NCBI GenBank assembly: GCA_000018565.1
Contig: CP000875.1
Location: 377,199 to 441,198 of the forward strand
Source: Herpetosiphon aurantiacus DSM 785
Lineage (GTDB): Bacteria > Chloroflexota > Chloroflexia > Chloroflexales > Herpetosiphonaceae
Length of the DNA stretch: 64,000 bases
Reading direction: 5' to 3'
Shown here: piece by piece, positions 3,744-64,000 of the stretch
Layout: each line of letters starts with the position of its first letter
How positions within the stretch are numbered: the first letter of the stretch is position 1
Made by a program: the position numbers and the translations under genes
The notes under the pieces: model-generated
Seen by the model: the letters and a program-made list of their open reading frames with translations, nothing else
Databases searched by the model: none
What the model was told of the DNA's origin: nothing

Positions 3744-4133
3744 TTAAAGCATCCCTTTGCTTGATTCGATGTTGCCCCATTGCCAAGCGGTGTTGAGTGG
3801 CGCGGTTTGCAGTTGGTGTGTCATCGTAATACCTTCGATATCGCCCCATTGCCAAGCGGTGTTGAGTGGCGCGGTTTGCAGTTGTTGGGTGACGGTAATG
3901 CCTTCGATGTCGCCCCATTGCCAAGCAGTATTGAGTGGGGCAGTTTGCAGTTGTTGGGTGACGGTAATGCCTTCGATATCGCCCCATTGCCAAGCAGTGT
4001 TGGCGGCGGCTGGTGTACCAAATTGGGGTGTTTGGCTGCTTGTGAGGGCAGTGTAAACAAAACTGACAAAAATCAGGCCGAAGGTTACGAAGGCGAGAGC
4101 GATGCGGCGGCTAATCGTTGATGAATTGTACAC
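3744..4133 (-). CDS. Small secreted/membrane-anchored protein with 23-aa tandem repeats (NTAWQWGDIEGITVTQQLQTAPL)
   Basis: The ORF track extends to 4229, but an AGGAGG RBS followed 6 nt later by GTG at 4133 gives a start just before the hydrophobic segment IALAFVTFGLIFVSFVYTAL. The C-terminal part is four copies of a 23-aa repeat. Confidence 0.55.
   Translation of the reverse strand: MYNSSTISRRIALAFVTFGLIFVSFVYTALTSSQTPQFGTPAAANTAWQWGDIEGITVTQQLQTAPLNTAWQWGDIEGITVTQQLQTAPLNTAWQWGDIEGITMTHQLQTAPLNTAWQWGNIESSKGML
3775..4012. repeat. 69-bp tandem repeat, about 3.5 copies, inside a CDS
   Basis: Units starting 3775, 3844, 3913 and 3982 ('ccccattgccaagc(g/a)gt(g/a)ttgagtgg...gcagttg...ccttcgat(a/g)tcg') with few mismatches. 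Confidence 0.85.
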
Positions 4134-7753: not shown

Positions 7754-7775
7754 GTCTGAATGCCCTCACCCCAAC

Positions 7776-7809
7776 CCCTCTCCCACTGCGGTGGGAGAGG
7801 GGCTTTTTG
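7776..7809 (+). terminator. Rho-independent terminator of htpG, formed by a degenerate copy of the GC-rich palindromic repeat
   Basis: Stem cccctctccc / gggagagggg with loop actgcggt, followed by cttttt. Confidence 0.7.
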
Positions 7810-7896
7810 TTAAATCCCCAACTTGCGACTGATTACGCCCCAAATCATTGTGATTATGCTGGCTATGATCAACTCTGATCGCAGACGAGGTGAACG

Positions 7897-22263: not shown

Positions 22264-22354
22264 GGCCCAACTCCTTGATTGAATGACGCGCTGCGTTAGA
22301 GTATAACACGGTATAGGAGTCAGGGACTCTTACAAGGATAGGTTTTAAGTTCCC

Positions 22355-22418
22355 TCACCCCCTAGCCCCCTCGCCCACTGCGGCGGGCGAGGGGGCTAGG
22401 GGGTGAGGGCATGCCAAT
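22355..22418. repeat. GC-rich palindromic MITE-like repeat: minimal perfect hairpin copy
   Basis: ccctcaccccctagccccctcgccc-actgcggc-gggcgagggggctagggggtgaggg. Flanked at 22440-22460 and 22561-22656 by other modules of the same mosaic family (cccttgaaagggt; ccttcgtgtcctttgtgcccttcgtggatc; ctatgttctatgctctat). Confidence 0.8.
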
Positions 22419-22655
22419 CGGCGGTACATCCCACCCAACGATTGTTAAAAACCTACCCTTGAAAGGGTCAGGGATTGAGAGTCGGGGTTTAGGGGATCAG
22501 GCAATTGGCATTGAAGCGTAATCATAATAATCTGTGCTAATCTGTGGCAAAAACAGCCTTCGTGTCCTTTGTGCCCTTCGTGGATCAAACAGTAATTTTG
22601 CGTCCTCGATCCCCAGCTCACCTCTATGTTCTATGCTCTATATTCTATGTTCTGA

Positions 22656-25073: not shown

Positions 25074-25236
25074 CGGTATCCTCCAAGGCGATGCTTGTTC
25101 AATGTCCCTGTCCTCATGGACAGAAAATTCTAACATTAAGTATAGCAAGCTCTGGACCTAGGCGTGTTAGCATGACATTAATACGCACACCCAAAAATAG
25201 CTGTAATGATTCATTGGGTTGGCAATAAACTCTATG

Positions 25237-25337
25237 CCCTCACCCCCTAGCCCCCTCTCCCGCCCGCGAGGCGAGGGGGAATCGCACTCGGAGTGCCCCC
25301 CTCGCCCGCCGCAGTGGGAGAGGGGTTGGGGTGAGGG
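25237..25337. repeat. GC-rich palindromic MITE-like repeat, full-length copy with imperfect terminal inverted repeats
   Basis: Left arm ccctcaccccctagccccctctcccgc...gcgaggcgaggggg; right arm cccctcgcccgccgcagtgggagaggggttggggtgaggg. Followed at 25340-25390 by the module ttgttaacc...cattacacatagaacctag. Confidence 0.8.
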
Positions 25338-25398
25338 TACAGGAAAATTGGTTGTTAACCTCATAAGCCATTACACATAGAACCTAGAAGGAGTTTGC

Positions 25399-27285
25399 AT
25401 GAATGGTGGAGGCTGGCGAGGGTTTGTTCGCGCCAATGAGGACGAACAACCCACCATCAGCCGCATGTTGTTGCAGCGCGTATGGGGTTATGCCAGACCC
25501 TATCGCAGCGGCATCATTGTGGTCTTAATTACAATTTTCATCGGAACCTTGTTGGATCGGATTACACCGTTGTTGGTGCGCCATTTGATCGATGTGGCGA
25601 TTCCAGAGCGCAATCTAGGGCGGCTGAATCTTGTAGCCGTCGGCTTGGTTGCAATTCCCTTGATCGGCGGTTTGCTGGATATTTTGCAGCGTCGCCATTC
25701 ATCGTTGGTTGGCGAGGGAATTATTTTTGATTTGCGGCGGGCCTTGTATAGCCATATGCAGCGCATGAGCTTGCGTTTTTTCACCAGCACCAAATCGGGC
25801 GAGTTGGTTTCGCGGCTCAATAACGATGTGGTTGGTTCGCAACGGGCGGTTACTGGCACGCTGATCACGTTAATCACGAATGTCATTACCGTTAGCATCA
25901 CGCTGTTTATTATGTTGACGATCGAATGGCGTTTAACCTTGTTAGCCCTGCTGGTTTTGCCCTTGTTTATGCTGCCAGCCCGCCGTGTTGGTCGCATTGT
26001 GCGCAACTTGACCCGCTCGCAAATGCAGGCTAACGGCGAAATGAATGGCTTGATGGGCGAAACCTTGAATGTCAGCGGCGCGTTATTGGTCAAGATTTTT
26101 GGGCGGCGCAACGATGAAGTCGCCAAATTTAGCCAACATGCTGGCGAAGTGCGCGACCTAGGCATTCGTACCGCCTTGGTTATGCGCTCATTTTTTGTGA
26201 TGGTTGGTTTGGTCAGCGCAGTTGGCGTAACCTCAGTTTATTGGTTTGGCGGCTATCTCGCAATCACCTCGGATAATTTTAGCACTGGCGATATTATTGC
26301 CTTAGCCTTATATTTGCCTGGTTTGTATGGCGCAATTTCTACGTTGGTCAATACGCGAGTCGAATTGGCTTCATCATTGGTTTCATTCGAGCGGGTGTTT
26401 GAAATTCTCGATTTACCGCTAGAAATTGTTGATGCTGAGCAGCCTCAAATACTGCAAACTATTCGCGGCGAAGTGCAATTTGAGCATGTTTGGTTTCGCT
26501 ATCAGGCCGATGAGATCAATAGTCTCAGCTCGCGCGATGGTCAAGAAACCACTGTTATCAGTCCAATTACAACCCGTGAATGGGCCTTGAGCGATATTGA
26601 TTTTACCGCTAAGCCAGGCCAATTAGTGGCATTGGTCGGGCCATCGGGCGCGGGCAAAACCAGCCTAACCTACCTGTTGCCACGTTTATACGACCCCAGT
26701 CGTGGCCGCGTGTTGATTGATGGAATTGATGTGCGCGAGTTGGAGCTTGATAGCCTTGGTCAAGCGATTGGCATGGTCACCCAAGAAACCTTTCTCTTTC
26801 ACGAGAGCTTGCGGGCTAATTTGCGCTATGCCAAACCCGATGCCACTGATGCTGAATTAGAGGCCGCCTGTCGCGCTGCCAATATCCACGATTTGATCGC
26901 CAGCCTGCCCAATGGCTATGATACGGTGGTTGGCGAACGTGGTTATCGCTTCTCAGGTGGCGAAAAACAACGGATTGCGATCGCCCGTGTGATTCTCAAA
27001 AACCCGCGGATTTTGGTGCTTGACGAGGCCACCTCGGCGCTCGATTCACGCTCGGAAGCATTAATTCAGGCTGCACTCCAACCATTGCTCAAAGATCGCA
27101 CCAGCATTGTGATTGCCCACCGACTTTCAACGATTCTGGCGGCTGACTTGATTTTGGTCGTCGATCAAGGGCGGGTGCTCGAACGTGGCACACATAGCGA
27201 GTTGCTAGCCCAAGCTGGTTTGTACGCCCAACTCTATCAAACCCAATTTAAGGAGCGGGAACAAGCCTTAGAACAGAGAGCATAG
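25399..27285 (+). CDS. ABC transporter permease/ATP-binding fusion protein (MsbA-like exporter)
   Basis: Six N-terminal TM helices. Walker A 'GPSGAGKTS', signature 'FSGGEKQRIAIAR', Walker B 'ILVLDEATSALD', H-loop. AAGGAG RBS. Confidence 0.85.
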   Translation: MNGGGWRGFVRANEDEQPTISRMLLQRVWGYARPYRSGIIVVLITIFIGTLLDRITPLLVRHLIDVAIPERNLGRLNLVAVGLVAIPLIGGLLDILQRRHSSLVGEGIIFDLRRALYSHMQRMSLRFFTSTKSGELVSRLNNDVVGSQRAVTGTLITLITNVITVSITLFIMLTIEWRLTLLALLVLPLFMLPARRVGRIVRNLTRSQMQANGEMNGLMGETLNVSGALLVKIFGRRNDEVAKFSQHAGEVRDLGIRTALVMRSFFVMVGLVSAVGVTSVYWFGGYLAITSDNFSTGDIIALALYLPGLYGAISTLVNTRVELASSLVSFERVFEILDLPLEIVDAEQPQILQTIRGEVQFEHVWFRYQADEINSLSSRDGQETTVISPITTREWALSDIDFTAKPGQLVALVGPSGAGKTSLTYLLPRLYDPSRGRVLIDGIDVRELELDSLGQAIGMVTQETFLFHESLRANLRYAKPDATDAELEAACRAANIHDLIASLPNGYDTVVGERGYRFSGGEKQRIAIARVILKNPRILVLDEATSALDSRSEALIQAALQPLLKDRTSIVIAHRLSTILAADLILVVDQGRVLERGTHSELLAQAGLYAQLYQTQFKEREQALEQRA

Positions 27286-27300
27286 AACATAGTTGTGGTT

Positions 27301-27343
27301 CCCCCTCGCCTCGCGTGCGGGAGAGGGGGCTAGGGGGTGAGGG
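27301..27343. repeat. GC-rich palindromic repeat (right-arm copy), with associated modules out to about 27535
   Basis: ccccctcgcctcgcgtgcgggagagggggctagggggtgaggg, then ccattgttaacgcg..ccattacagatagagcatagaacatagagc and cccttcgtggatc at 27510-27530. Same order and orientation as the copy upstream of the ABC gene. Confidence 0.75.
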
Positions 27344-27586
27344 AATGCTAGCCATTGTTAACGCGACAAACCATTACAGATAGAGCATAGAACATAGAGC
27401 TTTTTTACCGCAGAGGCCATAGGGCTATCGGCTGAAGGCCCTAGGCTATTGGAACCGGGGGATATTTCAAAAGCCCATAGCCTAAAGCCTAAAGCCATAT
27501 CAGCCTTCATGCCCTTCGTGGATCGAAAACTCCGCCAATATCTATTACACTATAGCCATTGTTTTGAGCAAGGAGGCTTGAACGCT

Positions 27587-28621
27587 ATGATGAAGGCTGG
27601 ATTTTTTCGCCACCATGGTGGGCTAGAAGTTTTAGAATATGGCGATCTGGCTGAACCCGTGGCTGGGCCAGATGAAGTTTTAGTGCGAGTGCGGGCTGCC
27701 GCCTTGAACCACCTTGATCTGTTTGTGCGCGAGGGCTTGCCTGGCCTGAATTTGCCCATGCCGCATATTGGTGGCTGCGATATTGCGGGCGAAATTGCGG
27801 CAATTGGCGAGGGCGTGACTGGTTGGCGCGAAGGCCAGCGCGTGGTCGTCAACCCTAATATCTGGTGTGGCGCTTGCGAATATTGCATTGCTGGCGAAGA
27901 AACCTTGTGCGATCGTTATGGCGTGATCGGTGAGCACCAAACTGGTGGTTTGGCTCAATATATCGCGGTGCCAGCTCGCAATCTCTACGCCATTCCTGCT
28001 GATTATGCGTTTGAGCAAGCTGCCGCTGTGCCGCTGGTTTGGATGACCGCTTGGCGAGCATTGATCGGTCAAGCACAGTTGCGGGCCGGCCAAAGCGTGC
28101 TGATTTTGGGAGCTGGTGGTGGTGTGGCCAGTGCTGCAATTCAAATTGCCCGTTATGCTGGAGCAACCGTCTATGCTGCCTCGCGTTCGCCCGAAAAACT
28201 GGCCCGTGCCCAAGAACTAGGGGCCGATTACGTGGTACGATCAGATGGCGATTGGGGCCGCGAACTGTGGAAACAAACCAATAAGCGCGGAGTTGACGTA
28301 GTGTTGGAGAATGTGGGAGCCGCCACATGGGAAAGCTCGTTACGCAGCGTTGCTAAAGGCGGCACGGTCGTAACCTATGGAGCAACTACCGGACCAATCG
28401 TCAATATCGATATTCGTAAACTTTTTTGGCGACAATTTAACCTGATTGGCTCGACCATGGCCAATAATCGAGAATTTAATACGATTATGCGCTTGGTATT
28501 TTGGGAACGCCGTTTTCAACCATTGATCGACAAGGTGTTTCCACTCAGCGAAATTCAGGCAGCTCAACGCTATCTCGAATCAGCCGAGCAATTTGGTAAA
28601 GTCGTGATCACAATTCCCTAG
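27587..28621 (+). CDS. Zinc-binding alcohol dehydrogenase family oxidoreductase (MDR superfamily)
   Basis: Start at the ATG at 27587 (AGGAGG RBS). 'GGCDIAGEI' catalytic region, structural-zinc Cys pattern 'CGACEYC', Rossmann 'LGAGGGVASAAIQIA'. Confidence 0.8.
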   Translation: MMKAGFFRHHGGLEVLEYGDLAEPVAGPDEVLVRVRAAALNHLDLFVREGLPGLNLPMPHIGGCDIAGEIAAIGEGVTGWREGQRVVVNPNIWCGACEYCIAGEETLCDRYGVIGEHQTGGLAQYIAVPARNLYAIPADYAFEQAAAVPLVWMTAWRALIGQAQLRAGQSVLILGAGGGVASAAIQIARYAGATVYAASRSPEKLARAQELGADYVVRSDGDWGRELWKQTNKRGVDVVLENVGAATWESSLRSVAKGGTVVTYGATTGPIVNIDIRKLFWRQFNLIGSTMANNREFNTIMRLVFWERRFQPLIDKVFPLSEIQAAQRYLESAEQFGKVVITIP

Positions 28622-31908: not shown

Positions 31909-34101
31909 ATGCGATTACGGATTGGTTTAATCATCACGCTTTTGTTGATGATCACCGTTGGAAAAACCCTGCAAAACCCCAGGGATGTAGCCCAAGCCCT
32001 GTCCCAAACCCCTGATCAAACCACAATTCCGCAAGGATTTTCCCGCATCCAAGAGCAAGAATTTAACGACTTACCACTCAATGCCAATCTGTTGGTTGGC
32101 AGCAGTTTGGTGGTGCGCGGCTCAATTCAGCAAACTGATGTTGATTATTTTGCGCTTGATTTAACCGCTGGTCAGCGTTTAGCAATGGCCACCATTACTA
32201 GCGCCAGCGTCGCCTCCAGCGATACAACCATCCATCTCTATGCTTTCGATGGCGTAAATAGTGATCTGATCGAAACCGATTTGAGCGATGGCATTCTGAG
32301 CAACAGTTCCTCGGTGATCAGTTCTCAGCCAATTACGCTGACCGGAACCTACCTGATTAAAGTTGAAGGTGGCACTGCAACCACGGTTATTCAGCCCTAC
32401 GACTTATATGTGCGAGTGCTGAGCGAAACTGCCAGCGAACAAGAACCTAACGACGAAGTTGCCCAAACCATCGATGCTCAAGCGGCAATCAGCGGGGTAG
32501 TTTCAACCACCAACGATCTTGATCGCTATCAATTTAATGTTAATCCTGGCGACACAATTTTTGCCACCGTTGATTTTGATCCAGAGCGTGATGGCATAAC
32601 TTGGAATGGCTTTCTCGATATTGGCATGATCAACAATACCTATCTTCGGGCTAACGATAGTAATAGTGTTTCACCCAACGCTGAAGCCAATGTGATCACC
32701 GTTCAACAAGCTGGCACTTACGAAATTCGCATTGGCTCACTACTTGAGATCGGTGTGGATGCTAGTTATTTGGCGCAAGTTACGATTATTCCCGCCGCTA
32801 TTCAGGCCAACTGCCAAACCGTGATGAGTTCAGGTGCACCACAGAATATTGGCCCACAAGCTGGAATAATTCAATCGACATTAACCGTCACCCAAGCAGC
32901 CAACATTGCCGATATTGATGTATTGCTCAATTTAGAGCATAGCTTCATGCCCGATTTGGATGTAACCCTGACTGCCCCCGATGGTAATGTGATTAACCTC
33001 TTCACCGATATTGGCAATGTGCAGCAACCTACCGTTAATCTCGTGATTGATCAACAAGCTGCCTTACCACTTGGCACGTATAACGTTTTGAGTGGCACGC
33101 ATTTTGGTCCGAAATGGAATAGCAGCCTCGATTGGTTGGCTGGACAACAAGCCCAAGGCCAATGGATACTGACGATTTATGATGATACCGACCAAAATGC
33201 TGGTGTATTAAATGGTTGGGGCTTGCGGATTTGTGGCATGCCCACGCCAAGCGATTGTCCAGTCGGGATGTCGCGCAGCGTGCTTTATAGCAGCCAATTT
33301 GAGGCCGATAATGGCGGGCTTACTCCAGGCCCATTTGACCAAGAATGGGTTTGGGGTAATCGTAATAGCCCACCAATTGTTGGTGCGTATAGCGGCGAAA
33401 ATAGCTGGAATACCAATTTAACCGGAAATTATCCTAATAGTACCCGCATGCAATTGCTATCACCGCAAATTGACTTAACCAATGTTACGGGGCCAATTTA
33501 TGCAAGTTGGTATCAACGCTATCAGCTTGATAATAGTGTTAACGATTTTTATCAGGTAACGGCCCATAAGCCCCAAGTTGAACAGATTCTCTTTCGCCAT
33601 CAAAGTGCTGCAATGCAAATTAACCTCGGAAATCCTTTGGTTACGCTTGATCAAAGTACAGGTTGGGGACTTCAACGCCATGATCTAAGCGATTTTGCTG
33701 GCACTTCACTCTATTTAACCTGGGATTTCGGTAGTGATGAGGTAGCAAGTTTTGCTGGGATTGCGCTTGATGATGTGGAAATTACTGGTTGTATTGATCC
33801 AGCTCAAATCACGCCAACGAATACGCCAACGCCAAGCAACACGCCAACCCTAACATCAACTCCTAGCAATACGCCAACGCCAAGCAATACGCCAACGGCG
33901 ACCGCAACACCAACCCAAACCTTAACGCCAACTGAAACGCCAACGCCAAGCAATACGCCAACGGCGACCGCAACGCCGACCCAGACCGAAACGCCAACCG
34001 CGACTGAAACACCAAGTATCACCCCAACGAGTACACCAAGTGTAACGGCAGATCCAAGCTTAATCCCGGTCTATCTGCCTTTAGTCAGTAAAGATAATTA
34101 A
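31909..34101 (+). CDS. Secreted multidomain protein: signal peptide - PPC - PPC - proprotein-convertase P-domain - MAM-like domain - PT-linker - conserved C-terminal tail (paralog 1 of 5)
   Basis: GGAGG RBS. PPC signatures 'EQEPNDE..A..I.A...ISGV....D.DRYQFNV..GDT'. P-domain '[29 protein letters not shown]...W.L.I.DD...AG.L..W.L.IC'. MAM-like '[12 protein letters not shown]'. Linker [13 protein letters not shown].... Tail '[12 protein letters not shown]'. No peptidase catalytic domain. Confidence 0.8.
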
Positions 34102-34242
34102 ACCAATTGCGCCAGTCTGGGGATGCCTAGGCTGGCGCAATGCCCCTAAATTCACCCTTGCAATTGGTTAAAAAGTAGCCTATCCTAACTCAATCCCACC
34201 TTCATTATTGCCCCAGCAAAAGCCTTGTTTTAGGAGGTTTGC

Positions 34243-36393
34243 ATGCGTCTACGGATTGGGTTTATCGGCCTCATGATCGCTTTACTTGGGTTAACTGGTA
34301 GTTTACGGGCTTTCAAGCCAGTTCAAGCTGCCCCAAGTAATCCAACTACCGCTCAAATTGCTCAAGCGAATGTCCCGCAGGGGGCAGTCCGCGTTAAAGA
34401 ACAGGAAAGCAACAATACGACTGCCACCGCCAACGCGATCATGTCCAGCAGTACCCTAATTCGCGGGAATATCTGGAATGGTGATGTTGACTTCTATAGC
34501 ATTGAATTAGCCGCTGGCGATCGCCTGACCGCTGCAACCATGAGCGCGGCTTCAGCCTCTGGCAACAACGATACGGTATTAACCTTTTTTGCGCCTGATG
34601 GTACAACCGTGATTGAAACCGATGATAACGATGGCTCACTTGGCGGCAATGCCTCGGTGATTAGTTCGGCTCCGGTGACCCAAACCGCTACCTACTATCT
34701 GCGGTTAAGTAGTACTAGTACCAACCAAGTTCGCTACTACGACTTCTATGTGCGGGTGTTGAGCGAAGCCGCCACTGCTGAAACAGAGCCAAATGATCTT
34801 TTGACAACCGCCCAAGTGTTGCCTACCAGCGGCACAATTTCGGGGGTCTTATCGGCTACAACCGACCTCGATTACTACCAGCTTAACTTGAATGCTGGTG
34901 ATACGATCTTTACCAGCCTCGACCTCAACCCTGAGCGCGATGGCATTGTTTGGAACGGACGACTTGGGATCGGCGCGTTTAATGGCTTTACTTTAGTTGT
35001 TGATGATACCAGTGTAGTCTCACCAAATGCTGAAGCCCATTTTATGACCGTCAAGACGAGTGGTACCTACTATGTGCTGGCCTCAACGACGGCTGCAAGT
35101 ATTCCGGCTGAAGCAACCTATTTGTTGGGTGTCACAGTGTTCCCTGCCGAGCAGCAAGCCAATTGTACAACCTACACCAGCGCTGATGTTGCCAAGACCA
35201 TCCCAACGACTACCAGCTTTATTACCTCAACCTTGACTGTTCCCGACAACTTTATCATCGCTGATCTTGATGTCAGTATCGAACTGACTCATACCAATAT
35301 GCCCGACCTCGATGTTCAACTCCAAGGGCCAGATGGCAATGTTGGAGGGCTATTTACCGATATTAGCAATAATACCCAGACCACGATGAATATCGATCTT
35401 GATGATGAAGCCGCAATTCCAATTGGACTTTTCGCGATTGTCTCGGGCATCCGTTATATTCCAGAGTTGAATTATCGCCTCGATTGGTTCGATGGTGGGC
35501 GATCGGCTGGCACCTGGACTCTCTTGATTCACGATGATACTGCTGCCAACGGTGGAACATTGCAAAATTGGAGCATCACGCTGTGTGCCGCGCCACCAGC
35601 AAGCTGCCCCGATGGTATGAGCATGAGCACAATCACGAGCACTGATTTTGAAGCCAATGATGGTGGCTTTACCCATAGCGGAACTGCTGATTCATGGGAA
35701 TATGGCGCACCAAGCGCTGCTCCATTGATCGGTAGCTATAGTGGGGCTAATAGCTGGAAGACCAACCTTGACGGAACTTATTCGGTCAGTAGTATTGCCA
35801 ATCTCTTCTCGCCATCAATTAGTATTCCCAATGTGACTGGCCCTGTCTACATCCAATGGCAACAACGCTACCAGATGGAAAGTGCTAATTTTGATCATTA
35901 CACGGCCTCGGTTGGTACAGGCGTTGTGACCAAAACCTTGTATGAATTTGATGCAGCAACCATGACCAATGCAGTTGGTAACCCAAGCGTAACCTTCCAA
36001 GAAAGCACAGTTTGGAGTCGCCAGCTCTACGATATTAGCGAGTTCAAGGGTCAATCAATCCAGGCCTTGTATCACCTAGATACTGATAGTTCGGTTCAAT
36101 TGGGTGGTATCGCGATCGACGATTTCCAAATTATGGCCTGTGACGGTGTGGCAGCAACCGCGACCCCAACCGAAGCACCAACCGCTACCAGCACACCAAC
36201 CAACACGCCAACTAACACACCAACCAACACGCCAACTAACACGCCAACCAATACACCGATTATCACGATTACCCCAAGCAATACGCCGACGGCTACGGTT
36301 ACCCCAAGTAACACGCCAACCGTTACCCCAAGCGTGACCGCTGGGCCAACCATGATTCCGGTTTATATGCCATTAGTCGGTAAAGACCAATAG
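34243..36393 (+). CDS. Paralog 2 of the secreted PPC-PPC-P-domain-MAM-like-PT-linker family
   Basis: Same architecture as paralog 1. Signal peptide '[23 protein letters not shown]'. Tail '[12 protein letters not shown]'. Confidence 0.8.
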
Positions 36394-36547
36394 ATCAGCC
36401 CTTGCCTAATAATGCAGCCCGTGGCTTAACCACGGGCTGTACTCGTTAACAGCACCAAACTGCCCCTTGTGTTTGCTCACCCTATAGCCTACGCTAACTC
36501 AAGCCCCGCTCATCGCTTCGATAAAACCTTGATTGTAGGAGGTTCGT

Positions 36548-38629
36548 ATGCGTTTACGGATTGGGTTTATCGGTCTTATGATCGCCCTGCTCGGATTAAC
36601 GGGCGGCTTGCGTAGTTTAACCAGCGTTCAAGCAGTACCCAACGCCCCTCAAAATCTCGCAGCCCACCAACTTAATACTCCTCAAGGATTTGCGCGGATT
36701 AGCGAACAAGAATCAAACGATACTCCTGCCATGGCCCAGCCAATCATTGGCGATTCAGCCGTCATTCGCGGCTATATCACTGCCAATGATAGCGATTTCT
36801 TGGCAATTCCACTTACTAGCGTCCAACGGGTGGTCGCAGCAACTATGACCTCGGCTTCAGCCACAAATATTGTCGATTCGATCCTGACTCTCTATCAACC
36901 TGATGGGACAACTGTCTTGGAGCTTGATAATGACGATGGGATTTTTGGCGTGAGTTCTTCGGTTATCAGCTCAGCGATTATCACGACTACTGCAACCTAC
37001 TATCTCAAGGTCACCGCCAACAATACGACGAATAAAATTTATTATTACGATTTATATGTACGGATTTTAACCAGCGAACCAATTGTCGAACAAGAGCCAA
37101 ATGAGCCAGCTCAAATGCTGCCAGCAGCTGGGATTGTCAGTGGGATTATTAGCCAAACTGGCGATATTGATCGTTTTCAGCTGGCCTTGAATCCAGGCGA
37201 TACGTTGTTTACAACCCTCGATATAGACCCCGAACGTGATGGCATTAGCTGGAATGGGCGGGTAACGATCGGGCCATTTGGGCCAAATATCATCACAATC
37301 AACGATGGCAATGCGGTTTCGCCCAATGCCGAATCGGCCCAATTAACCGTTAAAGAAGCTGGTAATTATATAATCAGCGTCGATAACCTATCAGCAATTA
37401 ATAATTCGACCTACATCCTACAAGTGCTGATCATCCCAGCCGAAGAGCAAGCCAATTGTCAGACCTATATGAGCACCGATGTCAATAAAACAATTCCACC
37501 TGATCCTGGTATGATCACGTCGGGATTAAATATTCCTGACAATCTCTTGATTGGCGATTTAGACTTGATTATTCAGCTTGATCATACCTTTATACCTGAT
37601 CTCGATGCGCAATTGACTACGCCTGATGGGAATATCCTTGGGCTATTCAGCGATATTGGAATCACGACTAGTGCCCCAGCGAGCATGAACCTGATTATTG
37701 ATGATGAAGCAGCCTTACCATCATTTCAAGCGCTTAGCGTCAATGGATTGATCAACTTGCCTGAGGCAGCCTATCGGATGAGTTGGTTTGATGGCCAACG
37801 TACCCAAGGCAATTGGACATTAACGCTCTATGATGATGCAACTGGCGATGGGGGCACATTACTCAATTGGGGCTTGCAGGTTTGCGCTGCGCTGCCACCC
37901 GCCGATTGTCCTGATGGCACGGTTAGCAGCACCATCTACAGCACCGATTTTGAAGCAAATGATGGGGGCTTTACCCATAGCGGAACCACTGATCCATGGC
38001 AATATGGTCAACCAAACTCAGCGCCAATTGTGGGCAGTTATAGTGGGAGCAATAGTTGGAAAACCAATTTAACTGGCAATTATCCCGCTTTAATGAATGC
38101 CAACCTAACGTCGCCGGCCATTGATCTTAGCGGTGTAGTTGGGCCAATTCAGGTGCAATGGCAACAACGCTATCAAATCGAATCAGCAGCATTTGATAAT
38201 TATGCAGCACAGATTGTTGGTAGTAGCAACCAAGTACTCTTTCAGCATCGCGATGGCGTAATGCGTGAATCAGTTGGCAATCCGCTGGTTACGGTTCAAG
38301 CAAGCACTGGTTGGAGCCGCCAACTGCATGATATTAGTAGCTTTGTGGGTCAGTCGATTCAACTGCAATTCCATATGGATACTGATTCCAGCGTTGAACT
38401 GGCGGGTGTCGCCATTGATGATGTGCTGGTAACTGGTTGTGTTGTGCTCCCTACGGCCACCCCAACCGAAACGCCAACTAACACACCGACCAATACCCCC
38501 ACCGAAACCCCAACCAATACGCCGACGGTTACGGTTACGCCAAGTAATACACCAATCGTTACCCCAAGCGTGACGGCTGGGCCAACGACGATTCCAGTTT
38601 ATCTGCCGTTGGTTAGTAAAGGCGAATAA
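36548..38629 (+). CDS. Paralog 3 of the secreted PPC-PPC-P-domain-MAM-like-PT-linker family
   Basis: Same architecture. Tail '[12 protein letters not shown]'. The leader 36394-36547 is nearly identical to 38630-38784. Confidence 0.8.
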   Translation: MRLRIGFIGLMIALLGLTGGLRSLTSVQAVPNAPQNLAAHQLNTPQGFARISEQESNDTPAMAQPIIGDSAVIRGYITANDSDFLAIPLTSVQRVVAATMTSASATNIVDSILTLYQPDGTTVLELDNDDGIFGVSSSVISSAIITTTATYYLKVTANNTTNKIYYYDLYVRILTSEPIVEQEPNEPAQMLPAAGIVSGIISQTGDIDRFQLALNPGDTLFTTLDIDPERDGISWNGRVTIGPFGPNIITINDGNAVSPNAESAQLTVKEAGNYIISVDNLSAINNSTYILQVLIIPAEEQANCQTYMSTDVNKTIPPDPGMITSGLNIPDNLLIGDLDLIIQLDHTFIPDLDAQLTTPDGNILGLFSDIGITTSAPASMNLIIDDEAALPSFQALSVNGLINLPEAAYRMSWFDGQRTQGNWTLTLYDDATGDGGTLLNWGLQVCAALPPADCPDGTVSSTIYSTDFEANDGGFTHSGTTDPWQYGQPNSAPIVGSYSGSNSWKTNLTGNYPALMNANLTSPAIDLSGVVGPIQVQWQQRYQIESAAFDNYAAQIVGSSNQVLFQHRDGVMRESVGNPLVTVQASTGWSRQLHDISSFVGQSIQLQFHMDTDSSVELAGVAIDDVLVTGCVVLPTATPTETPTNTPTNTPTETPTNTPTVTVTPSNTPIVTPSVTAGPTTIPVYLPLVSKGE

Positions 38630-38784
38630 ATGTATCGCGTCGCTAAAATCGCAGCCCGTGGTTAATCCACGGGCTGCCCGTATTAACAGCACTAAACTCA
38701 CCCTTGTATTTGGATGTTGTCGCGCCTATGCTAGCCCAATCCCCGCTCATTGCTTCGATAAAACCTTGATTGTAGGAGGCTTGT

Positions 38785-40912
38785 ATGCGTTTCAGGATTG
38801 GGTTTATCGGCCTTATGCTTGTCGTACTTGGGTTAACTGGTAGTTTGCGGGCTTTCAAGCCAGTTCAAGCCGCCCTCAGTAATCCAAATACCTCACGAAT
38901 TGTTCAAACGCATGTGCCGCAAGGTGCAGCTCGGATCAATGAACAAGAAAGTAATAATACACTTGCAACGGCTAACCCGATCATGGCGAGTAGGGCGATC
39001 ATTCGTGGGATTATCTGGAGTGGTGATGTTGATATGTATCGGATTGAATTAGCAGCAGGCGACCGATTGAATGTCGCGACCATGACTTCCGCTGCAACCC
39101 ATAGCAGCACTGACACCGTACTAAGCCTGTATGCACTCGATGGAACAAGCCTCATTGAATTAGACGATGACGATGGAACATTTGGTAGTCTTTCATCAGT
39201 CATTAGCTCAGTTCCGGTCACCATAACAGGTACATATTATATTCGTATCAATGCGTTCTTGGCTACCGCCCAAGTTCGTTACTACGATTTGTATGTACGC
39301 ATCTTTAGCGAAGCCACCACTGCTGAGCAAGAACCAAATGATGTTGTTGGCACAGCCCAAGTGTTGCCAGCCAGCGGCGCTGTTGAAGGTAGTTTATCCG
39401 CCACGACTGATGTTGATCTGTTTAAATGCTGGCGATACGATTTTTACGAGTATCGACTTTAACCCTGAACGTGATAGCACAAATTGGAATGGAAGCCTCG
39501 GTATTGGACTATTTAACGGTCTTATTTTATTCGCTGATGATAACAGTACTTCGGCTCCGCCGAATGCTGAGGCTCATTTTATGACCGTTAAAAATAGTGG
39601 AACCTATTATGTTGTTGTTTCAACAAGTGCGAGCAGTATTCCGGCTGAGGCAACCTATCTATTAAATGTTACGACCTTTCCTGCCGAGCAACAAGCGAAC
39701 TGCACAACCTACACCAGCACCGATGTTGCCAAAACGATTCCAACCACCACCAGTTTTATCACCTCAACTTTGAGCGTTCCAGATAACTTTATCATTGCCG
39801 ATCTTGATCTAAGCATTCAATTGACCCATAACAACATGCCCGACCTCGATGTCCAGTTGCAAGGGCCAGATGGTAATGTTGGTGGGCTATTTACCGATAT
39901 TGGATCAAATCTTGTGACGATGATGGATCTTGACCTTGATGATGAAACAGGGATCACGATTAACAGCTTTGCGGCTGTAGCTGGGATGAAGTATATTCCT
40001 GAATCTGTCTATCGCCTCAATTGGTTTGACGGTGGTCGCTCAGCCGGCACTTGGACGCTGTTGATTCACGATGATCTCGCTAGCAATGGTGGTACACTCC
40101 AAAACTGGAGTATTACGCTGTGTGCCGCCCCTCCCGCGAGCTGCCCCGATGGTATGAGCATGAGCACAATCACGAGCACCGATTTTGAGGACAATAATGG
40201 TGGTTTTACTCACAACGGAACCGGCGATACATGGGAGTATGGTGCACCAATCGCCGAACCACTGATCGGCAGTTACAGCGGGGTTAATAGTTGGAAAACT
40301 AATTTGGATGGAACCTATAGTGCTAGCAGTGTTGCCGATCTCTTCTCACCATCAATCAGTATTCCGAATGTGGCTGGCCCAGTCTATTTGCAATGGCACC
40401 AACGCTATCAGATGGATACGGCTGGATCTGATCGCTATAGCGCATCAATTGGTGCTGGGGCTGTGACCAAAACCCTGTATGAGTTTGAGTCAGCCGTAAT
40501 GACCAATCCAGTTGGCAATCCAAGCGTGACCTTCCAAGAAAGCACAGTTTGGAGTCGTCAGTTACACGAAATTAGCGAGTTCAAGGGTCAATCGGTTCGG
40601 GTTCAATATCACCTTGATAGTAATGCTACAACGAATTTGGGTGGCGTTGCAATCGACGATTTTCAAATTATGACATGTGATGAGGTGATCGCAACCCCAA
40701 CCAACACCCCAACTGCAACTCCAACCAACACCCCAACTGCAACTCCAACCGCAACCCCAACCGCAACCCCAACCGCAACCCCAACCAACACCCCAACCAA
40801 TACGCCAACGGTTACGGTTACGCCAAGTAATACGCCAACCGTTACCCCAAACGTGACGGCTGGGCCAACGACGATTCCGGTCTATCTGCCACTAGTCGTT
40901 AGAGGCGAATAG
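38785..40912 (+). pseudogene. Paralog 4/5 of the same family, disrupted by a +1 frameshift in an A-run (39424-39426); the two ORF fragments are 38785-39462 and 39251-40912
   Basis: N-terminal and C-terminal parts align to the other paralogs in different frames. Removing one A from 'tttaaatgct' restores '...[23 protein letters not shown]...'. Tail '[12 protein letters not shown]'. Confidence 0.65.
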
Positions 40913-63319: not shown

Positions 63320-63464
63320 TTGCTAAGCTCTGTTGGTTCAATCGCCCTCGCTGCCGTTTTGGTGGCGAGGGCTTTTTGATCCACGAAGGCCACAAAGGAC
63401 ACGAAGGGGAAATGTCTATTAACTATAGGGGTATTAGTTCATTGGGCTGGTAATCAATTGTATG

Positions 63465-63678
63465 CCCTCACTCCCTAGCCCTCTCTCCCGCAGGCGAGGC
63501 GAGGGGCTGGGGGCTTTCAAGGGTAGGTTTTCAACAATCATTGGGTAGGATGCACCGTCGCTGTTCATGCCCTCACCCCCTAGCCCCCTCTCCCGCAGGC
63601 GAGGCGAGGGGGAAACCCTTGATCATGATACTGGATATCCCCTCGCCCGCCGCTGTGGGAGAGGGGTTGGGGTGAGGG
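63465..63678. repeat. GC-rich palindromic MITE-like repeat, about 1.5 nested/tandem copies
   Basis: ccctcactccctagccctctctcccgcaggcgaggcgagggg, then caagggtaggtttt..., then a second full unit ccctcaccccctagccccctctcccgcaggcgaggcgaggggg...cccctcgcccgccgctgtgggagaggggttggggtgaggg. An inverted 'cttcgtg' module lies at 63380-63410. Confidence 0.8.
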
Positions 63679-63753
63679 AACGATTAACCTCGTGAACCAA
63701 AAGCTATAACCAATCTCCAATAGCCTCGTGCCTTTACTCCTCTTCATTAAATT

Positions 63754-64000
63754 CTAATCCCTAATCCCTTGATAGTGATCCAACCGATCCCGCAGGGCGT
63801 TACCAAGCAAGTTGAGCCATAGCACAGTTGTGGCAATGCACAGGCCAGGAATAATCATTAGCCGTGGTTCGCGTTGAAAAAATGCCCGTGATTCGTTGAT
63901 TAAATTGCCCCATTCAGGGGTTGGTGGGTTGAGTCCAAAGCCAATAAACGACAAGGCCGAAAGATTCAATATCACGCTGCCAAAGTTGGTGGTGGCAATC
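63754..64000 (-). CDS. ABC transporter permease, C-terminal part only (Dpp/Opp 'C'-type); the gene continues beyond the window
   Basis: The reading frame is open to the window end. C-terminal 'LMIIPGLCIATTVLWLNLLGNALRDRLD' is typical of DppC/OppC-type permease C-termini. Confidence 0.55.
   Translation of the reverse strand, partial: IATTNFGSVILNLSALSFIGFGLNPPTPEWGNLINESRAFFQREPRLMIIPGLCIATTVLWLNLLGNALRDRLDHYQGIRD

Follow-up and report, generated by a model that had tools for sequence, protein, structure and literature searches.

The intergenic repeat known as BoxC, PIT or the intrastrand triplex motif (TM) has, in its E. coli form, the architecture CCCTCGCCCC-TTT-GGGGAGAGGG-TTA-GGGTGAGGGG (Holder et al. 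2015, PMC4666352). It occurs in more than 260 genomes, where it is strictly intergenic, frequently forms inverted pairs and is tied to local instability, with small deletions and rearrangements nearby; no link to transposons, phages or plasmids was found, and in E. coli, PIT/BoxC motifs acted neither as promoters nor as terminators (PMC4666352). Chloroflexi and Herpetosiphon are not mentioned in that study (PMC4666352). Among transposable elements, the insertion sequences (IS) of the IS481 family have TGT ends and generate a 6-bp target duplication at NCTAGN (PMC3053399, PMC2516522), and their ends can carry outward promoters (PMC3053399). Here, we analyze a 64,000-nt stretch of Herpetosiphon aurantiacus DSM 785 (the window; all coordinates are window positions), in which two repeat blocks flank a gene for an ATP-binding cassette (ABC) exporter. 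Both blocks are, in our judgment, quite probably independent insertions of a genus-specific, non-coding and non-autonomous miniature inverted-repeat transposable element (a MITE), the core of which is an inverted pair of BoxC/PIT motifs.

The GC-rich arm of the two blocks is, as the order of its segments indicates, a long-stem variant of this cross-phylum repeat. The motif itself is already known: BoxC repeats have been recognized since the 1990s, and the earlier literature on BoxC, PIT and TMECO includes work by Bachellier in the 1990s and by Hoyne and Maher in 2000. Copies in the window have the form CCCC(C)TC(G/T)CC(C)-loop-GGG(A/C)GAGGGG(G)-TT/CTA-(G)GGGGTGAGGG, that is, a C-rich block, its G-rich complement and a mirror G-rich third block, as in a class II purine motif. 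They share with BoxC/PIT/TMECO the succession of C-rich block, loop, GGGAGAGGG-type block, short loop and mirror GGGTGAGGG-type block, along with the conserved G/T mismatch in the first stem (CTCGCC versus GAGAG), a strictly intergenic location in both orientations, the frequency of inverted tandem pairs, an association with local rearrangement and small deletions, and occurrence across phyla. The stems, however, are 10-11 nt long versus 9 nt in TMECO, and loop 1 measures 4-9 rather than 3-6 nt; loop 2 is 2-3 nt here (TT or CTA). Because of these longer stems and different loops, the window motif is a variant and not TMECO sensu stricto, and the published strict pattern (CCCTCNCCC N3-6 GGGNGAGGG N3 GGGNGAGGG) has no match on either strand of the window. 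A relaxed pattern recovers eight clean copies at five window sites, or nine including the degenerate copy at 63465-63507; all five sites are intergenic, three of them hold inverted pairs, and the copies lie in both orientations. The third-strand blocks are outermost in the Herpetosiphon pairs, whereas they are innermost in four of five E. coli pairs, and the E. coli BoxC pairs have neither similar arms nor TGTA ends, their common flank amounting to just ~15 nt. A further difference is that the Herpetosiphon pair is enclosed in an element that has terminal inverted repeats (TIRs) and target duplications, while the TM was described without any link to mobile DNA (PMC4666352).

The upstream block contains a complete element of 174 bp (25202-25375), inserted 23 nt before the ABC start codon. 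Shorter than 300 bp, non-coding and bounded by TIRs, it has the size and structure of a MITE, and the longest open reading frame (ORF) across it (65 aa) returned no homologue in a protein search. Its outermost 7 nt are perfectly inverted copies of each other (TGTAATG/CATTACA), and identity over about 24 nt is 71%. As single-stranded DNA the element is predicted to fold into one long hairpin (-49.2 kcal/mol, z = -6.8). The central spacer between its two TMs lacks 7 nt in the metagenome strain L002, whose ABC protein is identical.

Evidence that this element was inserted comes from the loci around the ABC gene in H. gulosus, H. llansteffanensis, H. giganteus and H. geysericola, which together with H. 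aurantiacus make five species; the ABC protein of H. gulosus is 99% identical to the window copy and that of each of the other three 93%. The spacer between the Zn-peptidase and ABC genes is 324 nt long in the window versus 140-143 nt in the four other species, and alignment reduces the difference to a single missing block. With respect to H. gulosus, the 180-nt difference equals the element (174) plus its duplication (6), and removing the element and the right 6-mer from the window leaves ATAGCACCTAGAAGGAG against ATAGCACATAGAAGGAG in H. gulosus, with one mismatch in 17. The site is filled in H. aurantiacus and empty at the same position in four species, and the boundaries of the missing block are the ends of the element. 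Since these four species include outgroups, a single gain is the more parsimonious explanation. The two spacers next to the ABC gene are the only ones, among ten in the syntenic block, whose length varies.

Data on copy number and on the elements themselves cover the 64-kb window and selected Herpetosiphon loci (~0.5 Mb). In this material, the element family occupies five intergenic sites of the window and occurs in at least six Herpetosiphon genomes, and eight complete copies of 135-174 bp with common termini could be delimited. The composite unit consists, in order, of TGTACTGGTTCATTG(C)GTTAAC…, a reverse motif, an ~18-nt spacer, a forward motif, and CATG…GGTTGCCAA…AATGAACCAGTACA. Put differently, it is a MITE-like element of ~170 bp in which AT-richer TIRs (TGTAMTGRTTCATTG…CAKTACA) surround an inverted TM pair. 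TIR-bearing copies in other species have 13-nt perfect ends, and the arm types and motif variants are combined differently among the copies.

The 6-mers flanking the eight elements are AATAGC/CATAGA (the window element), GCTATT/GCTATG, CAAAGA/CCTATA, TCTATG/TCTATG, CATAGC/CATAGC, TCTATG/GCTATA, GCTATA/GCTATG and TATAGT/TATAGT. Left and right partners are identical at 39 of 48 positions versus 27.2 for shuffled partners (P = 0.003), and even at the outer 'N' positions 10 of 16 match versus 4.2 (P = 0.007). In each of the four cases tested, the array around the element keeps its 7-nt phase better once one 6-bp copy is deleted. Read from these flanks, the element family makes a 6-bp target-site duplication at NCTATN/NATAGN.

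The downstream block is merely a half element, with one GC-rich motif and one arm. Over the half-unit (~105-110 nt), its identity is 69% with the left half of the upstream element taken as reverse complement and only 54.5% with the co-oriented right half; its fold is unexceptional (z = 0.34). H. gulosus, H. giganteus and H. geysericola lack it, and in H. llansteffanensis the spacer between the ABC gene and the following alcohol-dehydrogenase-like (ADH) gene holds an independent full element (TGTACTGGTTCAT…ATGAACCAGTACA, duplication TATAGT). In H. gulosus, both sites flanking the ABC gene are empty.

A preliminary description of this region had already drawn attention to the repeats, and every string it quoted lies at the position given. 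The repeats are genuine, since the counts in the window far exceed chance expectation: the GC-rich motif (GGGAGAGGGGNNNGGGGTGAGGG, up to three mismatches) has six matches versus 0.00 expected, and CATAGAACATAG (up to one mismatch) has five versus 0.20 expected. Short copies had been reported to abut the end of the gene, and CATAGAACATAG does overlap the ABC stop codon (27283-27285). The description recognized the GC-rich arm but overlooked its identity with the BoxC/PIT/triplex motif (PMC4666352). It took 25237-25337 as the full element; a palindrome does occupy those positions, but the element extends beyond it to the TGTAATG…CATTACA termini. It also had both flanks carrying the same ordered modules in the same orientation. 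A co-oriented direct repeat of 38 nt (TTGTTAAC…CATTACA.ATAGA; 25352-25389 versus 27355-27392, 79% identity) bears this out to a degree, but the strongest similarity between the flanks is inverted (25234-25286 versus 27294-27346, 53 nt, 92%). The 'catagaac' strings listed among the modules belong instead to older heptamer tandem arrays that received the insertions. What held up well is the mosaic character, with modules reshuffled from copy to copy, and the view that the repeats are MITE-like or BIME-like and not a simple terminator: the several intergenic sites and genomes occupied, and the upstream presence/absence polymorphism with TIRs and a 6-bp duplication, all agree with it, and the target-site duplication that the description proposed to look for was found.

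The explanation we favor is that a DDE-type transposase acting in trans would recognize the ends, which are ~25-35-nt AT-richer inverted repeats beginning with TGTA, would insert the element at NCTATN/NATAGN and would duplicate 6 bp. Carried along as the core would be the inverted BoxC/PIT pair, each member running from a C-rich block through a loop to a G-rich block, which a 2-3-nt loop separates from the mirror G-rich block. The complete upstream copy would have landed in the H. aurantiacus lineage, next to a resident ABC gene, and the downstream copy would be a one-armed derivative. Once in place, the elements may act largely as passive palindromes that destabilize the spacers (strain indels, synteny breaks, assembly breaks), although a motif that happens to have a T-run after its hairpin could be retained as a terminator, as after htpG. 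The data establish to which family the GC-rich motif belongs, how the element is built, that it is multi-copy, that orthologous sites differ in its presence, that 6 bp are duplicated and that there is no cassette. The family of the transposase, like any current activity of the element and any effect on expression of the ABC gene, is something we infer, and IS481-like would be our best guess. The element resembles the IS481 family in its TGTA… ends and its 6-bp duplication, with the target NCTATN here versus NCTAGN for IS481 and ISLxc2, and 12 of 14 bases agree between GATTCAATAGGTTG, confirmed to be IS481 sequence, and the H. aurantiacus end at its positions 7-20 (GATTCATTGGGTTG). It differs in having no transposase gene, a target that is not palindromic, and a GC-rich triplex-motif palindrome as its core.

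Several points weigh against this account. The target duplications are perfect in only three of the eight elements, and the pair CAAAGA/CCTATA agrees at three of six positions; just one fully clean filled/empty pair was obtained. The likeness to IS481 rests partly on a presumed placement of GATTCAATAGGTTG in the IS481 inverted repeat. Neither the ~0.5 Mb of Herpetosiphon sequence nor a metagenome scan with the terminal-repeat pattern revealed an autonomous element or a transposase with matching ends; the scan yielded 14 stretches, only one of them a real element (L118), and no autonomous IS. The MITE model does not account for how the one-armed downstream copy arose. Finally, many TMs of these genomes have no TGTA arms at all and occur solo, as palindromic doubles (for example, 22352-22409) or in a second kind of pair, so the MITE is one vehicle and cannot account for every copy of the motif.

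How else might the two blocks have come to flank the gene? The preliminary description suggested a repeat-bounded cassette, that is, a composite transposon whose outer ends (TGTAATG… from 25202 and …CATTACA to 27378) moved the ABC gene as a unit. The geometry would allow it: the outermost ends are inverted, lie 2177 bp apart, agree at 18 of 25 positions and are each bordered on the outside by NATAGN (AATAGC/GATAGA), and they are the sole pair of inverted ends 0.6-3 kb apart in all loci examined. The synteny in relatives with and without the repeats, however, is that of a resident gene. The Zn-peptidase gene is kept as its neighbor in all five species and the ABC gene lies between the Zn-peptidase and ADH genes in four, H. 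gulosus being rearranged downstream (synteny breaks directly after the ABC gene, locus L112 after 11888), while the upstream element is missing from four species and the downstream one from three, and a separate pair of 6-mers flanks each element. Because the neighbors are kept while the repeats come and go independently, the repeats must have come separately to the gene, and we reject the cassette as highly improbable. Perhaps, on the other hand, nothing moved, and the species differ because unstable palindromes and triplexes caused deletions or slippage in a spacer whose ancestral state was already rich in repeats. Holder et al. (PMC4666352) report small deletions and rearrangements near TMs, the 7-nt strain-level indel in the central spacer is of this kind, and synteny breaks at motif sites. 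An immobile repeat is nevertheless improbable, given that the absence from four species including outgroups favors a single gain, that the missing block is an inverted-repeat-bounded element plus exactly 6 bp, and that unrelated loci of other species show these termini and duplications again.

Spread of the hairpins by a REP-associated tyrosine (Y1, HUH) transposase (RAYT) acting on single strands, with the TGTA arms being incidental, would fit the mosaic modular layout in alternating orientation, the existence of armless solo and paired motifs, the strong single-strand hairpins that the motifs form, and the CTAG tetranucleotide adjoining the hairpin foot in the CTA variant. This REP/BIME-type reading is unlikely all the same, as the boundaries at the clean filled/empty site are TGTA…TACA ends and not hairpins, and Y1 transposases (the IS200/IS605 and RAYT mechanisms) are not known to make 6-bp target duplications. 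In addition, the TT variant has no tetranucleotide, and no RAYT gene was seen, a genome-wide RAYT search not having been made. An IS200/IS605-type insertion without duplication had been considered when the first junction seemed to show a 1-nt overlap; it was ruled out, as the 6-bp duplication covers the extra 7 nt. A somewhat less remote reading, though still one we doubt, is that the repeats are host cis-regulatory elements through which the exporter gene is controlled, be it as conserved terminators, attenuators or promoter elements. The copy after htpG (HtpG is ABX02974.1/A9B7K1) speaks for this, with its 12-bp GC stem, 4-nt loop and T-run CTTTTTGTT, as expected of an intrinsic terminator. 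H. gulosus, H. llansteffanensis and H. giganteus have the hairpin in the corresponding position, with a loop that changes from TGCG to CTAG while stem and T-run are kept, and in H. geysericola an unrelated hairpin terminator stands in its place; both the conservation and the replacement fit a terminator function for the htpG copy. The upstream ABC copy, for its part, lies between the conserved promoter region and the ribosome-binding site (RBS; AAGGAG, 25388-25393), so that it must be transcribed as part of the 5' leader, and outward promoters are known in IS481 ends (PMC3053399). However, close relatives with an intact gene lack both ABC-flank copies, and these copies have no T-run, no terminator-like site in 25200-25400 or 27286-27420, and, in copies or arms, no promoter-like match above shuffles in consensus scans; PIT/BoxC is likewise inactive as promoter or terminator in E. 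coli (PMC4666352). The suggestion in the preliminary description that the repeats act as terminators can be retained for the htpG copy, conserved in four species, and not for those at the ABC gene. Outward promoters in the arms were also considered and were dropped, the consensus scans being negative and manual -35/-10 readings weak.

We return to the insertion of a MITE, and to the question of why its copies lie where they do. Most copies sit inside heptamer (CATAGAA)n arrays, which begin at or within the stop codons of the ABC gene and of the kinase gene. Such arrays are present at the orthologous place in element-free species, from which it follows that they predate the insertions. Each heptamer unit holds a NATAGN target and arrays follow many stop codons, which accounts for the clustering of copies at gene ends; in the proposed mechanism, the (CATAGAA)n arrays would serve as runs of targets in which copies accumulate. 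The preference for gene ends proposed in the preliminary description is compatible with these data, all sites being intergenic. More generally, Herpetosiphon intergenic DNA is rich in short tandem arrays (CATAGAA, AAAGCCT, CTAATCC, CCTTCGTGN), which often start from a stop codon. Other Herpetosiphon species have arrays of GGATGAA, GGGATCA and AAATCAA, and the number of units varies among species in orthologous spacers (L112-L115). These arrays resemble the STRR heptamers of cyanobacteria. The nonamer array at 27504-27529 is conserved at the orthologous site in three other species and is not part of the mobile element. The features are collected in Table 1.

Table 1. Repeat features and neighboring sequences in the H. 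aurantiacus window
Feature	Position	Strand	Remarks
Solo triplex motif after htpG	7763-7811	-	+ strand reading: hairpin 7775-7802, then CTTTTTGTT
Double triplex motif, perfect palindrome, one common hairpin	22352-22409		Followed by shared module 22410-22465; at synteny breakpoint
Left target copy AATAGC, upstream element	25196-25201		H. gulosus empty site reads ...AAAATAGC^ACATAGAAGG
Left terminal arm, upstream element (TGTAATGATTCATTGGGTTGGCAAT...), 'GGTTGCCAA-type' TIR	25202-25236	+	Same arm at 63430-63464
Triplex motif, CTA-loop variant, reverse: CCCCCTCGCC-TCGCGGGC-GGGAGAGGGGG-CTA-GGGGGTGAGGG	25237-25279	-	BoxC/PIT type, family per PMC4666352
Central spacer between both triplex motifs	25280-25296		Strain-variable
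Triplex motif, TT-loop variant, forward: CCCCCTCGCCCGC-CGCA-GTGGGAGAGGGG-TT-GGGGTGAGGG	25297-25337	+	
Right terminal arm, upstream element (…TTGTTAACCTCATAAGCCATTACA), 'GTTAAC-type' TIR	25338-25375	+	From repeat comparison
Right target copy CATAGA, upstream element	25376-25381		One more heptamer unit follows, then RBS and ABC start
ABC exporter gene	25399-27285	+	ABC_membrane + ABC_tran, 628 aa; resident gene, not cargo
Heptamer array (TAGAACA/GAGAGCA)n	27266-27293	+	Codes for the last ABC residues and stop codon; provides insertion target
Left target copy CATAGT, downstream half element	27288-27293		Within heptamer array
Downstream half element	27294-27378	+	Spacer remnant TGTGGTT, CTA-type triplex motif 27301-27343, GTTAAC-type arm ending CATTACA
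Right target copy GATAGA and continued heptamer array (ATAGAGC ATAGAAC ATAGAGC)	27379-27401	+	From direct repeat and array analysis
CCTTCGTG-type nonamer array 5' of ADH gene	27504-27529	+	Kept at orthologous place in three other species
Longer mosaic, degenerate terminal arms	63430-63712		Three triplex motifs: 63465-63507 (degenerate), 63570-63612, 63639-63678
Window heptamer arrays	22623-22653, 27266-27292, 27379-27401, 27470-27496, 63754-63769
Window nonamer arrays	22557-22582, 27504-27529, 63381-63407

The Zn-peptidase gene lies 5' of the ABC gene, divergently on the minus strand, and the ADH gene follows 3' in the same direction (start at 27588). The spacer 3' of the kinase gene, which bears motifs, is where synteny with the other species stops (window ~22617); this position and the H. 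gulosus site after the ABC gene are rearrangement breakpoints at repeat sites. Metagenome contigs end 46-157 nt from the ABC gene, as expected for dispersed repeats. Assemblies also break inside or beside repeats elsewhere, the H. giganteus contig ending 140 nt past htpG (L158) and L003-L005 likewise at their ends. H. llansteffanensis and H. giganteus have a second composite upstream of htpG, made of a reverse motif, CTTTAACC… and a forward motif and lacking TGTA arms (L157 ~2640-2770, L158 ~2620-2750); H. aurantiacus and H. geysericola do not have it. H. gulosus carries at L112 7650-8870 (window ~24087), between the kinase gene and a 40-aa ORF, a 1.2-kb TnpB-only insertion (OrfB_IS605/Cas12f1-like_TNB) that the window lacks. 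The divergent Zn-peptidase/ABC promoter region contains the palindrome CTGTCC-N4-GGACAG (25108-25123), a candidate operator that is kept in all five compared species with a variable N4. Other repeats in the window include a run of four tandem paralogous genes (31909-40912; P_proprotein/InhA-like MAM matches), whose Thr/Pro-rich linker repeats (ACGCCAACC…) are the largest direct-repeat families in the window, and a 69-bp unit present 3.4 times (91% matches) at 3765-4002 within a minus-strand ORF.

The Herpetosiphon element also invites comparison with other small repeat families. The Correia/NEMIS, ERIC and RUP MITEs are likewise 100-200 bp long and gene-adjacent, have TIRs and target duplications, fold into long hairpins, and are occasionally used as terminators or leaders. 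No sequence similarity to them was noted, however; the target is another one (Correia elements duplicate TA), and the core of the Herpetosiphon element is a cross-phylum triplex motif. With the REP/BIME repeats of enterobacteria and pseudomonads, the element shares intergenic GC-rich hairpins and short motifs in variable order and orientation, a high copy number and placement at gene ends; it differs in its motif of ~43 nt, compared with REP palindromes of 20-40 nt, and in its third block, 6-bp duplications and long TIRs, and the window motifs have no GTAG or CGTC tag of the REP type. Rfam, at gathering and permissive thresholds, gave no match for the element apart from sub-threshold miRNA-hairpin look-alikes, and a plasmid search with the whole element gave weak matches to the GC-rich motif (Pseudanabaena, Cupriavidus, Xanthomonas) and no Herpetosiphon plasmid. 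In the literature searched, a TM-bearing MITE with TIR ends, a 6-bp duplication and a documented empty site appears to be undescribed. The G-rich half of every motif also fits the pattern G3+N1-7 x4, and TMs account for nine of the ten such G-quadruplex matches in the window. A near-identical Klebsiella sequence, K. pneumoniae KP-PGQ-5 GGGAGAGGGCCGGGGTGAGGG, has been studied as a quadruplex (PMC11170735). The likeness to bacterial G-quadruplex sequences is confined to the G-rich half; a quadruplex reading ignores the paired C-rich block.

Beyond Herpetosiphon, more than 106 stretches across many phyla contain the exact 21-mer GAGGGGGCTAGGGGGTGAGGG behind the same hairpin, the hosts including Chloroflexi, cyanobacteria, Thiothrix, Longimicrobiaceae, Thermoanaerobaculia, Gracilibacteria, Hymenobacter and others. 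In Petrachloros (seven loci: L015, L028, L031, L041, L080, L082, L106) the identical motif lies inside longer lineage-specific repeats with sharp ends (…GTCGAACTCACGT), and in Thiothrix (four loci: L052, L070, L075, L103) within longer lineage-specific conserved repeats that also end sharply, which suggests that these repeats may be other carrier elements. IMG/VR viral contigs (L130-L149; for example, UViG_3300042525_000913 and UViG_3300044730_001458) contain the exact 21-mer and hairpin, some contigs of ~61% GC having four to seven motif copies, all on one strand; these copies differ from the statement of Holder et al. that the motif is absent from phages (PMC4666352).

What do these repeats mean for the motif and for the organism? 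At least in Herpetosiphon, the BoxC/PIT motif might travel as the cargo or core of a transposase-mobilized MITE, and, together with the Petrachloros and Thiothrix carriers and the phage copies, this could explain the near-identical motif in Chloroflexi, cyanobacteria, Proteobacteria, Acidobacteria, Gemmatimonadota and candidate-phyla bacteria; we offer this as a tentative idea, and a doubtful one at present. The spread of the triplex motif was left unexplained by Holder et al. (PMC4666352), and the defined ends, the 6-bp target and the empty site make its movement testable in a cultivable organism. For the ABC locus the result is deflationary: an ordinary resident gene encodes the exporter, and its flanking repeats are selfish insertions. 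For Herpetosiphon genomes more broadly, the elements and their target heptamer arrays mark hypervariable spacers, synteny breakpoints and assembly breaks.

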